Origin: Alphaproteobacteria bacterium
Lineage (GTDB): Bacteria; Pseudomonadota; Alphaproteobacteria; Rickettsiales; UBA3002
Direction: 5' to 3'
Length of the DNA: 64,000 bases
Assembly: GCA_017302575.1 (NCBI GenBank)
Contig: JAFLDD010000001.1
Location: 862,629-926,628, forward strand
Shown here: one piece after another, positions 3,309-59,130 of the stretch
How positions within the stretch are numbered: the first letter of the stretch is position 1
How the letters are laid out: every line of letters begins with the position of its first letter
Notes under the pieces: model-generated
What the model was told of the DNA's origin: nothing
The model's input: the letters and a program-made list of their open reading frames with translations, nothing else
Database searches by the model: none
Made by a program: the position numbers and the translations under genes

Positions 3309-3354
3309 AGTCTAGCAGAGCTATATTGCGAATAATGTGAAGATTTTATGAAGC
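3309..3354 (-). promoter_or_regulatory. Direct-repeat operator plus extended -10 module (GCTTCAT-AAAA-TCTTCAC-N19-TGC-TAGACT), 6 nt from ATG 3302
   Basis: Read directly; same 46-nt architecture as 5 other sites in window. Confidence 0.45.
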
Positions 3355-3407
3355 TAAGTGCGTAATTGTGCTGGCTTTTTACGCCTGCTTCGCTATCAGT
3401 TGCGCTC

Positions 3408-4355
3408 ATGCCTACACCCGCGCGAAAAACGGCTCATGATAAAGCCTTCCCAAGACACCTGCTTGGAATGGAAGGCGTTGATGCTTCTACTATCACCACG
3501 ATTCTTGATGCGGCCGAAACCTATGTCGAGAAAAACCGCCAGATCGATAAGAAGTCGAAAAGCCTGACGGGTCGCACCCTTATCAACCTCTTCTTTGAGA
3601 ATTCCACGCGCACGCGCACTAGCTTCGAGCTGGCTGGCAAACGCTTGGGCATGGATGTCATAAATATTAGTGCTTCGACCTCCTCGACCAGCAAAGGCGA
3701 GACATTGCTCGATACGGCGATGACACTGAACGCCATGCAAGCGGATGCGATTGTGGTTCGCCACCAGTCTGCCGGCGCGGTGCAACTGATTGCCGAGAAA
3801 ACCAATGCCCATATCATCAACGCAGGTGATGGCGCGCATGAACACCCCACCCAAGCGCTGCTTGATGCGCTGACCATTCGCCGCAAGCTAGGCAAACTTA
3901 AAGGGCTCAAAGTGGCGATTTGCGGCGACATCGCAAATAGCCGCGTGGCGCGCAGTAACATTTATCTGCTCAAAACCATGGGCGCGGAAGTGACGCTGGT
4001 GGCAACGCCGATTCTGATGCCAACCGCAGTCGAGAAGTTCGGCGTGAACTACACGACCGACATGCGCAAAGGCCTAAAAGACGTGGACGTGGTGATGATG
4101 CTACGCATTCAACATGAGCGCATGGCGGGTCGTGGCATCGCCAGCGTGCGTGATTATTTCCATGGCTATGGTTTGGATTATGGAAAACTCAGCCACGCGA
4201 AACCAAACGCGCTGATTATGCACCCAGGCCCGATGAATCGTGGTGTGGAGATTGATAGCGACGTGGCCGATGATATTGGCCGTAGCGCGATTTTAGACCA
4301 AGTGGAAATGGGAGTTGCAGTAAGGCAGGCGGTTTTAGAATTAGTGTTAGGGTGA
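3408..4355 (+). CDS. pyrB: Aspartate carbamoyltransferase catalytic subunit
   Basis: STRTR, HPTQ, and PGPMNRG ATCase motifs; ATG 3408 chosen over upstream alternative start 3366. Confidence 0.93.
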
Positions 4356-4358
4356 GTA

Positions 4359-4571
4359 ATGGCACGCATGAGAAAACAGGTTTATAAGGTACCTTTGGAT
4401 CCAGAAAAGGAACTTGCGATCTGGAAAAGACGCTTACAAGAAGGCCTAGACCAAGGCCATTTTGATAGAGATTCTCATGTGGGACAAGAGCTTGAACGAA
4501 GAATTGGTGAGCTTGAACCACTGGCCGAAGCGAAACGATTAAAAAGAGAAGCGAAGAAGAAAGATGACTAG
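4359..4571 (+). CDS. Small charged hypothetical protein (70 aa) between pyrB and pyrC
   Basis: Starts 3 nt after pyrB stop, 3' end overlaps pyrC ATG by 8 nt; K/E/R-rich; uses AGA/AGG Arg codons unlike flanking genes. Confidence 0.45.
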   Translation: MARMRKQVYKVPLDPEKELAIWKRRLQEGLDQGHFDRDSHVGQELERRIGELEPLAEAKRLKREAKKKDD

Positions 4572-5880
4572 TTTTTTTAAACCCCAGCGCAATCTAAAAC
4601 CTGACCACACGGTTGCTTATACCAATGCGCGACTCATTGACCCTGAATCGGGCCTCGATGAAAAAGGCACGCTGATTACCAAAGGTTCAACGATTGCTGA
4701 TTTCGGCGCGAAGGTCGCAACACCCGAAGGCGCAGAGATTGTGGATTGTGGCGGCAATGTGCTCTGCCCTGGGCTGCTGGATATTCAGGTGCATTTCCGT
4801 GAGCCTGGGCAGGAATATAAAGAAACAATCGAGACGGGCTCGAAGGCAGCTGCCGCAGGTGGCGTGACGACAGTCGCGACCATGCCAAACACCAAACCAG
4901 TGGTAGACGATATTACCGTGCTGGCGTTTTTACAAAAGCGCGCCATTGAAACGGGCTATGTAAATATTCGTCCCTATGCCGCTATTACCAAAGGCCAAAA
5001 AGGTGAAGAGCTCACCGAAATGGCGATGCTTGTTGAGGCAGGCGCTTGTGGATTTACCGACGATGGTTTGCCCGTGATGAATGCGCAGATCATGCGCCAA
5101 GCACTCACCATGGGTAAGGCGCTGGGCGTGCCGATTGCACAGCATGCGGAAGATCATAACCTCTCATGCGGTGGCTGCATGAATGAAGGTTGGGTAGCAA
5201 CGAAACTTGGCCTTAAAGGCATCCCCAACGTGTCGGAAGCGGTGATTGTGGCACGTGATATTTTGCTCGCGGAACTGACGGGCGGTCATTGCCACGTACT
5301 GCATATCTCCACCAAAGAAGCGGTGGAGCTGGTGCGCTGGGGCAAGAAAAAAGGCATTAACGTGACGGCGGAAGTTGCGCCTCACCACTTCATTCTGACC
5401 GACGAAGCAGTCATGGATTATCGCACCTTCAGTAAAATGAACCCGCCACTGCGTGCGGAGTCTGACCGCCTCTCGCTGATTGAAGGCCTCAAAGACGGCA
5501 CGATTGACGCCATTGCCACCGACCACGCGCCTCATGATGCGGAATCCAAGCGCGTGCCAATGGATACGGCGAGCTTCGGTATTGTCGGTTTGGAAACGAT
5601 GCTGAGCCTGTCGCTGAAACTCTACCACGACAAGCACCTCAGCTTGCGCGATGTGTTGGCGACGATGACCTATAAAGCGGCGGACATTATTCACGCCACT
5701 GCAGGACGTTTGAAAAAAGGTGCGCCTGCTGACCTGACACTCATCGATATCAACCATGAATGGGTGATTAAAAACGACGCGCTGCATAGCAAATCAAAGA
5801 ACTCGCCATTTGATGATGTGAAAACCAAAGGCCGCGCATTGCGCACCGTCGTTGGTGGCGAAACGGTATTCAAAGCATGA
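4564..5880 (+). CDS. pyrC: Dihydroorotase (amidohydrolase, long form)
   Basis: DIQVHFREPG metal-binding HxH region, HISTKE, ATDHAPH; full length 438 aa. Confidence 0.92.
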   Translation: MTSFFKPQRNLKPDHTVAYTNARLIDPESGLDEKGTLITKGSTIADFGAKVATPEGAEIVDCGGNVLCPGLLDIQVHFREPGQEYKETIETGSKAAAAGGVTTVATMPNTKPVVDDITVLAFLQKRAIETGYVNIRPYAAITKGQKGEELTEMAMLVEAGACGFTDDGLPVMNAQIMRQALTMGKALGVPIAQHAEDHNLSCGGCMNEGWVATKLGLKGIPNVSEAVIVARDILLAELTGGHCHVLHISTKEAVELVRWGKKKGINVTAEVAPHHFILTDEAVMDYRTFSKMNPPLRAESDRLSLIEGLKDGTIDAIATDHAPHDAESKRVPMDTASFGIVGLETMLSLSLKLYHDKHLSLRDVLATMTYKAADIIHATAGRLKKGAPADLTLIDINHEWVIKNDALHSKSKNSPFDDVKTKGRALRTVVGGETVFKA

Positions 5881-6599
5881 CCAATCTCTCACCTAAGAAC
5901 CCCATCATCTGCGCGCTGGATACGCAGGAAGTGGATGCGGCAAGCTCCATCGCTGAGGAAGTACGCCCACATGTCGGCGCGGTGAAACTCGGTCTGGAAT
6001 TCTTCACGGCTAATGGCGCGGTCGGCGTTTCACGCATTACCAAGCTAGGCATTCCAGTGTTTCTGGATTTGAAATTTCATGACATCCCCAACACGGTAGC
6101 ACGTTCGATTGCAGCAACGGCGGGGCTTAACACCTTTATGCTCACGGTGCATACGAATGGCGGCATCAACATGTTGCGCGCGGCGATTGATGCGTCGGAC
6201 CGTGTGGCGCAAATTACTGGTAAAGAACGCCCCTTAGTTGTGGGTGTGACGCTGCTTACCAGCCTTGATCAAGACGACATCTCGCTGCTTGGGTTTAAAG
6301 ATAATCTCAATGATCAAGTGCTTCGCCTTGCTGACCTTGCACAAAGCGCGGGGCTGGATGGCGTGGTCTGCTCGCCATTTGAGATCGGCATGCTTCGTCG
6401 CGCGATGGGCGGTGATTTCAAGTTGGTCGTTCCAGGTATTCGCCTTGAGGGCGGTGATGCGCATGATCAAAAACGCATCATGACGCCGCGTGAAGCATTA
6501 CAAAAAGGTGCAGATTATCTGGTGATTGGTCGCCCCATTACTCAAGCCCCCAATCGCGCGGAAGCTGCGCAAGCGATTGCGACGTCTCTTCAGATATAG
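5877..6599 (+). CDS. pyrF: Orotidine 5'-phosphate decarboxylase
   Basis: FLDLKFHDIPNT signature; ATGA overlap with pyrC. Confidence 0.92.
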   Translation: MTNLSPKNPIICALDTQEVDAASSIAEEVRPHVGAVKLGLEFFTANGAVGVSRITKLGIPVFLDLKFHDIPNTVARSIAATAGLNTFMLTVHTNGGINMLRAAIDASDRVAQITGKERPLVVGVTLLTSLDQDDISLLGFKDNLNDQVLRLADLAQSAGLDGVVCSPFEIGMLRRAMGGDFKLVVPGIRLEGGDAHDQKRIMTPREALQKGADYLVIGRPITQAPNRAEAAQAIATSLQI

Positions 6600-58699: not shown

Positions 58700-58807
58700 T
58701 CGAGCAGATTTCGAATCGAGATGTTTTTGAGTGCGGGGCGTGTGCAATAGAAGAGTACACCAAGCCACACGAAACCAAGTACTGCTGCAACGGGCAATAG
58801 ATACATA

Positions 58808-59017
58808 CTAGTGGAGGCTCACAGGGTCGAGGTTGTTTTGACGCGCCGTGTAATAGGCGCCTTCCTCGGTTGGGAAGATGGCAAGCTGCGTACCGTCTGC
58901 GGCGAATACTGCAAAGCCTGCTTCGTTACCATCGGTTACTGGCTTAATGTAGGCCATGGTCTCAACGCCTACCATTGACATCATCAGCTCTTCCAAGGTT
59001 ACGGTTTCAACTTGCAT
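58808..59017 (-). CDS. DUF1150-family small protein
   Basis: MAYIKPV...FAVFAADGTQLAIF...ARQNNLDPVSLH pattern; GGAGA SD before ATG 59017. Confidence 0.75.
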   Translation of the reverse strand: MQVETVTLEELMMSMVGVETMAYIKPVTDGNEAGFAVFAADGTQLAIFPTEEGAYYTARQNNLDPVSLH

Positions 59018-59051
59018 ATTCTGTCTCCCAGTCGGTTTTTGTCTTACTTGC

Positions 59052-59097
59052 AATCTAACAAAAATCGGCCGCGCCATGTGTGACAGTTGCGTGAAAT
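59052..59097 (-). promoter_or_regulatory. Direct-repeat operator plus extended -10 module (ATTTCAC-GCAA-CTGTCAC-N19-TGT-TAGATT)
   Basis: Read directly; same 46-nt architecture as the other sites. Confidence 0.45.
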
Positions 59098-59112
59098 CGT
59101 TGCATCTGTGGA

Positions 59113-59130
59113 TTGTCATAGAGTTGTCAT
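59113..59130 (+). promoter_or_regulatory. Near-consensus Pho-box-like direct repeat TTGTCAT-AGAG-TTGTCAT, inverted relative to 59080-59097
   Basis: Read directly; no -10 at the module spacing on the plus strand. Confidence 0.4.

Follow-up and report, generated by a model that had tools for sequence, protein, structure and literature searches.

The 64,000-nt chromosomal segment of an uncultured alphaproteobacterium analyzed here (hereafter the window) raises the question of whether a short promoter module that recurs in front of scattered orphan genes marks a set of genes under common control. The module combines a box of two 7-nt direct repeats, reminiscent of the Pho box recognized by the response regulator PhoB, with a -10 hexamer at a set distance downstream. 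The original prediction, made from the letters of the window, described eight such modules, and all eight sequences that it quoted are present at the genes to which it assigned them (Table 1). Our analysis indicates that the module is a real, conserved regulatory module and that the dispersed regulon is credible. We assign a probability of roughly 0.75 to the reading that these boxes serve a response regulator of the OmpR/PhoB family with PhoB-like specificity, which activates lineage-specific genes as a dispersed regulon.

The box is strongly overrepresented in the window. The pattern KTCAY-N6-KTCAY has 13 matches compared with 2.43 +/- 1.48 in dinucleotide shuffles, and none of 100 shuffles reached 13. 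A matrix built on 27 strict sites, taken from the window and its relatives, yields the consensus yKTCAY-nAAA-yyKTCAC-A, in which two 7-nt direct repeats flank a 4-nt linker and form an 18-bp element with an 11-bp period. The matrix carries information at positions that the search pattern had left free, namely a Y before each repeat, the AAA linker and an A after the second repeat; linker positions 6-8, on which no selection had been imposed, are A in 67-74% of the sites. This consensus supports the earlier description of the box as a Pho-box-like operator of the OmpR/PhoB type. The CtrA box is TTAA-N7-TTAAC, and the matrix consensus contains no TTAA half-sites.

When the window was scanned with the matrix, nine sites scored at least 15.8, and the next best match scored 10.6. 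Seven of the nine coincide with predicted sites; the remaining predicted site (site 8) scores below 9 because its second repeat, TCTTTAT, is degenerate. The eight-site list thus holds for seven strong members and includes one weak one, and it had missed two boxes, the inverted box at 59112-59130 and the weak box at 31270-31287. A position-matrix comparison of intergenic with coding DNA, which had been proposed as a check, placed eight of the nine top matches in intergenic DNA, a fraction that makes up 5.3% of the window (binomial P = 5e-10). The ninth, a strong box at 36258-36275 on the forward strand (score 16.9), is intragenic, lies on the strand opposite to the genes and is followed by no -10 hexamer. 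It is probably an inert intragenic site, a kind reported for PhoB of Escherichia coli (PMC10294691).

The position of the -10 hexamer relative to the box is not random. Among 52 boxes from the window and its close relatives, taken irrespective of the downstream sequence, TAnnnT occurs at offsets of 10 nt (10 cases), 21 nt (6) and 22 nt (11) from the box end and piles up nowhere else. In a larger set of 60 boxes in 315 kb, comprising the window and 18 related loci, TAnnnT is found at offset 10 in 12 boxes and at offset 21 or 22 in 21 boxes, where about 0.6 per offset would be expected. Thirty-three of the 60 boxes therefore carry a correctly spaced -10 hexamer, compared with 0-1 correctly spaced hexamers for each of 11 control trinucleotide cores, which had 1-25 matches. 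The fixed arrangement of 19 plus 3 nt that had been proposed is accurate for one class, at 21-22 nt, and fails as the sole spacing, since a 10-nt class exists as well. The same applies to the statement that the box lies one helical turn beyond the canonical Pho box position: five of the eight sites (1 and 3-6) have the longer spacing, whereas sites 2, 8 and probably 7, like 12 of the 60 clade boxes, have the canonical 10 nt.

Three -10 assignments changed as a result. At site 2 the hexamer had been placed at TAGAGA, which overlaps the ribosome-binding site and is not conserved (GGGAAG or TGAAAA in orthologues); TACTCT at offset 10 is conserved, with TAATTT, TAAAAT, TACATT and TAGGTT at the same position in four orthologous promoters (loci L087, L089, L008 and L010 of our comparison set). 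The second class of the original prediction, in which the hexamer followed the 19 nt directly, does not hold; the hexamers at offset 10 are TAGCCT in site 8 and TAGCCG in site 7. The -10 of site 7 is ambiguous between TAGCCG (26278-26283) and TACTAT at offset 16; in L028, a distant homologue is preceded by a box that has TATGTT at offset 10.

The spacer itself bears on whether an activator is needed. A second repeat of the form TTGTCA is one mismatch from TTGACA, and it could be read as the -35 element of a housekeeping or alternative sigma factor that acts with no activator; the GCTANAWC-type -10 elements of alphaproteobacteria, known from Caulobacter promoters, would also fit several sites. 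However, the distance between TTGTCA and the hexamer is 11 or 22-23 nt and never 16-18 nt. A single sigma contact could not serve two classes spaced one helical turn apart, the box is built as a tandem repeat with an 11-bp period, and a consensus promoter scan covering 15-27 kb of the window detected no -35/-10 pair at the modules. We consider this explanation extremely improbable. In 93 sites with the 22-nt spacer (class 22), spacer positions 19-32 carry no information, and the spacer therefore contains neither a -35 element nor a degenerate third repeat, a candidate that we had considered and that is ruled out on these grounds. The 93 sites include a subset from a class-22 pattern scan of metagenomes (120 loci, mixed taxa), on which the TG, the AA linker and the A after the box had been imposed. 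Class-22 sites also show a T at -17, and TG at -15/-14, though imposed on the metagenome subset, is frequent in the unbiased sites too.

At sites 1, 4 and 5, and at many sites of relatives (L008-L012, L035 and L087 among them), the ATG follows the hexamer by 6-7 nt. The predicted transcription start therefore falls on the start codon, and the predicted mRNAs are leaderless.

The boxes are also oriented with respect to genes. A co-oriented open reading frame starts 25-110 nt downstream of 35 of the 60 boxes, compared with 0-25% for control cores with at least 10 matches. Within the window, a strong box is present in 7 of 13 promoter regions of family-less genes and in 0 of 22 promoter regions of annotated genes (Fisher P = 2.6e-4), which supports the proposed link to lineage-specific genes scattered among housekeeping genes. 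Searches of Pfam and NCBIfam bore out the count of seven orphans and one DUF1150 protein among the eight targets. In relatives, 16 of 20 targets lack a Pfam match, the other four being two M48 peptidases, an HD_3 protein and a nucleoside deoxyribosyltransferase-like protein. Glycine-rich segments occur in several further targets, which are membrane proteins. In the metagenome scan, 48 of 59 high-GC targets have no Pfam match, a figure that describes a mixture of taxa and is not specific to the clade.

Some of the targets had been suggested to be effector-like, and the 332-aa product of site 1 lends this weak support. Its invariant motifs (a GxGxxGVVY Gly-rich loop, Lys61, Asp175/Asn181 and Asp195) and its structural model, of moderate confidence (mean predicted local distance difference test score, pLDDT, 70.6), point to a kinase-like protein. 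The top 50 matches in the PDB are all protein kinases, with weak E-values of about 1e-3, and the type III secretion effector kinase NleH2 is among the fold matches. A search of 5.8 billion proteins turned up only five homologues.

The next line of evidence comes from relatives. By GyrA the nearest are metagenome-assembled genomes labelled Rickettsiales, Azospirillum or Alphaproteobacteria bacterium, with 78-98% identity, and the nearest cultured genus found is Caenispirillum with 63%. The gyrA neighbourhoods of relatives with at least 78% GyrA identity mostly contain 3-8 boxes per 22 kb compared with 0.7 expected, and those of distant genomes contain boxes at a frequency near chance. Site 1 illustrates how the module is retained: across the window, L087 and L088-L090 the box varies at no more than one Y position, the spacer keeps its length of 22 nt with a wholly different sequence, TGnTAnnnT and N6-ATG are kept, and the proteins are only 49-62% identical. 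More generally, orthologous promoters differ in spacer sequence and their proteins diverge, but the box, the spacer length, the -10 and its distance from the ATG are retained. Such a pattern is the expected signature of selection on a binding site and not of recent copying. The architecture of site 6 recurs in L003 and upstream of the DUF1150 homologue in L163, and a box directly follows gyrA in six genomes (the window, L004, L007, L010, L012 and L027), where it stands ahead of unrelated genes.

The genes themselves also differ between relatives. In the syntenic locus L087, the 223-aa orphan and the site 3 module are both missing between tgt and queA, and an extra 145-aa orphan with a leaderless class-22 module is present at 12019-12508. 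L028 shares about 90% nucleotide identity with the window in housekeeping genes, yet other content (L028 4260-5528) replaces window positions 24611-26433, and the 419-aa gene of site 8 is absent. A gene and its own Pho-box promoter thus appear to be gained or lost as a unit. As a general observation, the orphans lie in small islets amid conserved housekeeping genes, and the islets vary between genomes that are about 90% identical elsewhere.

Joint gain and loss could also be read differently, as the result of short mobile or duplicated promoter copies that travel with orphans and serve no dedicated regulator. Sites 4 and 5 fit this reading: direct comparison shows 24 of 26 nt around the box in common. 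The proteins downstream of these two sites have no detectable similarity, so that the pair reflects either a promoter duplication or extremely fast divergence of the coding sequences; the idea that the two adjacent orphans downstream of gyrA are paralogues was rejected, no similarity having been found. Outside the 18-bp box and the -10, however, the sites have no common sequence and the spacer carries no information, orthologous promoters conserve only the box, the spacing and the -10, and the targets are unrelated proteins. Promoter copies of this kind are a highly improbable explanation.

Returning to a response regulator as the activator, we propose the following mechanism. The module would be an activator-dependent promoter of the sigma-70 type, with a -10 that is often TG-extended and without a -35. 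The regulator would bind the 18-bp Pho box as a head-to-tail dimer and recruit RNA polymerase. In the 10-nt class the box would occupy the canonical PhoB position overlapping the -35 region, with a presumed contact to sigma region 4; in the 21-22-nt class it would span about -52 to -35, with a presumed contact to the C-terminal domain of the polymerase alpha subunit (alpha-CTD), as in architecture III of the Salmonella regulator PhoP. Many of the promoters would start transcription at the A of the ATG and produce leaderless mRNAs. The regulon would consist mostly of fast-evolving lineage-specific genes (membrane and glycine-rich proteins, the kinase-like protein, DUF1150) placed singly between housekeeping genes. 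What we infer in this scheme is that a response regulator binds the box, that it activates and does not repress, and that it makes the stated contacts with RNA polymerase. The motif enrichment, the -10 phasing, the orientation towards genes, the absence of a -35, the conservation in orthologues and the association with family-less genes are observations.

Whether the regulator is a PhoB orthologue that responds to phosphate limitation is a more specific question; this is the likeliest identification, at about even odds. In other taxa covered by the metagenome scan, the same pattern precedes a Pseudomonadales ppk gene (L154) and a DUF47-PiT operon (L189; judged from its neighbouring genes, this locus does not look like part of the present lineage). 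These matches support the PhoB-type reading of the box sequence and say nothing about this lineage, whose DNA in the comparison contains no pst or pho phosphate-acquisition genes.

A serious rival, if an unlikely one in our estimate, is that a different OmpR-family regulator acts on the box through the same promoter mechanism, for example a CenR-like envelope regulator or a lineage-specific paralogue, with envelope stress or contact with a host or prey as the signal. CenR of Rhodobacter sphaeroides recognizes a direct repeat with an 11-bp period that is co-directional with the gene and directly upstream of the -35 position, and it activates envelope-related genes and controls extracytoplasmic as well as envelope proteins (PMC9275681). 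Sites of the form TCAC-N7-TGA or TCAC-N7-GTCA, of which CenR has several, resemble the box, many of the targets found here are membrane or glycine-rich proteins, and no phosphate-scavenging genes are among them. On the other hand, CenR has the consensus TGA-N8-TGA and favours G at the core, most clearly in its second half-site. Both halves of the box have the core TCA, which the construction of the matrix imposes, with C and not G in all strong sites. CenR sites lack the A-rich linker signature, and CenR promoters keep a -35. At the positions on which no selection was imposed, namely the flanking Y/K, the AAA linker and the trailing A, the consensus agrees with the Pho box, the 10-nt class has the canonical PhoB spacing, and the matches ahead of ppk and DUF47-PiT genes in other taxa point the same way.

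Several observations weigh against activation by a regulator with PhoB-like specificity. No OmpR-family regulator gene was detected in the window or in 210 loci by tblastn with an E. coli PhoB query, which returned only receiver-domain matches in unrelated loci. The local density of 7-8 promoters per 64 kb is far above that of described PhoB regulons, although it is known only for the two chromosomal neighbourhoods of the window, from which all comparative loci were drawn, and the targets are not phosphate-acquisition genes; both features would suit a different or repurposed regulator equally well. Finally, the spacing requirements of E. coli PhoB are described as strict (PMC10294691), and the 21-22-nt class breaks them.

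Table 1. Modules, additional boxes, target genes and other features of the window (box scores are matrix scores; spacers run from the box end to the -10 hexamer)
Feature	Position	Strand	Description
Site 1 module	3300-3354	-	Box GCTTCATAAAATCTTCAC 3337-3354; 22-nt spacer; TGc-TAGACT (-10 at 3309-3314); N6; ATG of 332-aa gene; leaderless; score 24.1
Site 2 module	8240-8296	-	Box GCTTCACACGATTGTCAC 8279-8296; 10-nt spacer; TGt-TACTCT (-10 at 8263-8268); score 20.4
Site 2 leader		-	20 nt with GGAG, then ATG of 389-aa membrane protein
Site 3 module	12298-12371	+	Box ATGTCATCAAACCGTCAT 12298-12315; 22-nt spacer; TACAAT 12338-12343; score 25.4
Site 3 leader		+	25 nt with GGAGG, then ATG of 223-aa orphan
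Site 4 module	16253-16307	-	Box ATTTCTTCGAATTGTCAT 16290-16307, first repeat imperfect; 22-nt spacer; TGc-TAATAG 16262-16267; N6; ATG of 175-aa orphan; score 15.8
Site 5 module	16839-16893	-	Box ATTTCATCGAATTGTCAT 16876-16893, abutting the gyrA stop codon; 22-nt spacer; TGc-TATGTT 16848-16853; N6; ATG of 163-aa orphan; score 21.6
Site 6 module	59015-59097	-	Box ATTTCACGCAACTGTCAC 59080-59097; 22-nt spacer; TGt-TAGATT 59052-59057; score 22.2
Site 6 leader		-	34 nt with GGGAG, then ATG of DUF1150 gene
Site 7 module	26252-26311	-	Box TCGTCATCAGACTGTCAT 26294-26311, ahead of 88-aa orphan; score 23.1
Site 8 weak module	25868-25929	-	Box TCTTCACGGTATCTTTAT 25912-25929; 10-nt spacer; TAGCCT 25896-25901; 25-nt leader; ATG of 419-aa orphan
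Extra box ATTGTCATAGAGTTGTCAT	59112-59130	+	Inverted, near-perfect, 14 nt upstream of site 6 box; score 18.9; no -10 after it, no gene ahead
Weak box GCTTCATATGCCTTTCAT	31270-31287	+	Upstream of chorismate-mutase-domain gene 31330-32004; overlaps start codon of divergent gene; score 10.6
Target of site 1	2304-3302	-	332-aa protein (identical to J0M34_04485), no family match, protein-kinase-like fold
Target of site 2	7073-8242	-	389-aa predicted multi-pass membrane protein, no family match; gene call confirmed in L086
Target of site 3	12369-13040	+	223-aa orphan
Targets of sites 4 and 5	15728-16255, 16350-16841	-	Adjacent orphans of 175 aa and 163 aa, own module each
Targets of sites 8 and 7	24611-25870, 25988-26254	-	Orphan islet (419 aa and 88 aa); differs in close relative L028
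Target of site 6	58808-59017	-	69-aa DUF1150 protein
Tad/Cpa pilus cluster	41783-52785	-	Complete: cpaB-F, tadB/C, tadE/G-like
DnaA boxes	19712-19720, 63343-63351, 41019-41039, 28471-28479		Perfect boxes read TTATCCACA

The two boxes that had been missed differ in standing. The inverted box next to site 6 is partly kept in L003, a strain with 92% identity, and is absent from L163; it is probably an accessory site and may be a repressing one. The weak box at 31270-31287 has no TAnnnT at offsets 10, 21 or 22, and we regard it as doubtful that this is a real site. The 389-aa target of site 2 has orthologues with 40% identity in L008. Arrays of three to four in-phase repeats, equivalent to two adjacent Pho boxes, occur in L129 (5788-5827, reverse strand), L012 (2596-2635, forward strand) and L011 (15808-15847, reverse strand) and may be compared with the E. 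coli pstS promoter.

The remainder of the window, which has a GC content of 51%, is largely of housekeeping character, with gyrA, pyrBCF, tgt/queA, argG, an H+-pyrophosphatase, ftsK, lolA, the Tad/Cpa pilus cluster, two tRNAs and the signal recognition particle RNA. The pilus cluster is adjoined by an EAL-domain gene, and there are no Pho boxes at these genes. DnaA boxes were considered as a second regulon and rejected, their count with at most one mismatch not being above shuffles; two perfect boxes are intergenic and lie upstream of gyrA and ftsK, and an inverted near-perfect pair lies upstream of an exbB/tolQ-like gene. Logan contigs of SRR13786856 are 100% identical to the window across 15 kb. 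An association with a eukaryotic host, suggested by a match to the many-contig assembly GCA_013558295.1, was dropped, as sibling JACCD* accessions appear in a metagenome collection and the match is probably to a metagenome assembly.

The matrix together with the spacing rule offers a route, from sequence alone, to a large set of orphans in an uncultured lineage. It predicts which orphans are real and co-expressed, and where their transcripts and reading frames start. The coupled gain and loss of promoter and gene constitutes a clean natural data set on the way in which an existing regulatory circuit takes in new genes. If the regulator is PhoB, a nutrient-sensing regulator would have been taken over for lineage-specific functions, as in virulence regulons.

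These considerations lead us to speculate further, tentatively and with the odds rather against it, that a PhoB-type regulator could be the master switch of fast-turnover accessory genes. In that case there could be hundreds of promoters per genome of about 2 Mb, each a portable 46-nt cassette without a -35 and often leaderless, with which a new or acquired gene could gain expression, and the products, among them the kinase-like protein and glycine-zipper membrane proteins, could form an arsenal for interaction with host or prey, like the PmrA-effector network of Legionella placed on a Pho-type signal. The repeat recognized by PmrA, cTTAATatT, differs from the box, and the window contains only the Tad/Cpa pilus cluster and no type IV secretion system. 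What the two systems would have in common is a single winged-helix regulator (proposed here) and dozens of scattered lineage-specific genes: PmrA of Legionella and Coxiella is a winged-helix response regulator and a global activator of about 40 scattered lineage-specific genes, Dot/Icm effectors (PMC6989116).

The closest likeness is to the PhoB-dependent promoters of E. coli (pstS, phoA, phoB). The Pho box consists of 7-nt repeats of the form CTGTCAT with a 4-nt linker (PMC4415409), and it takes the place of the -35, with its end 10 bp ahead of a TAN3T/A -10 (PMC1906773). The E. coli consensus, CTGTCATAWAWCTGTCAY, is nearly identical to yKTCAYnAAAyyKTCAC here, and the two have in common the 18-bp length, the pair of 7-nt repeats joined by an A/T-rich 4-nt linker, the lack of a -35 and, for one class, a distance of 10 nt from TAnnnT. 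Unlike in E. coli, the -10 follows most of the boxes here at 21-22 nt, and repeat position 3 may be either G or T. Family-less genes take the place of phosphate transport and scavenging among the targets, the local density is higher, and many of the transcripts are predicted to be leaderless.

For the longer spacing a parallel exists in Salmonella PhoP. In its architecture I the box lies 12 nt from the -10 and the alpha-CTD is not needed, whereas in architecture III the distance is 21-23 nt and the alpha-CTD is needed (Zwir et al. 2012, PMC3335776); the choice of architecture is tied to ancestral versus horizontally acquired genes (PMC3335776). The likeness lies in the use of two positions for a directly oriented box, separated by one helical turn. 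The PhoP box is not a Pho box and belongs to another organism, and the reverse-orientation class is represented here by one accessory inverted box only. The two spacing classes correspond to architectures I and III, so that a box at the displaced position has a precedent in this family of regulators. The features general to OmpR/PhoB-family promoters, namely tandem direct repeats with a 10-11 bp period that are co-directional with the gene, a fixed helical face relative to the -10 and a weak or absent -35, are all found in the window and the related loci. The mechanism is thus of a known, textbook kind, and what is unusual is the set of genes, the local density of the promoters and the way in which promoter and gene turn over together. 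Because the module has the anatomy of a Pho box, because one class stands at the PhoB position and because the two classes are arranged as in Salmonella PhoP, we read these modules as activator-dependent promoters of the OmpR/PhoB family.

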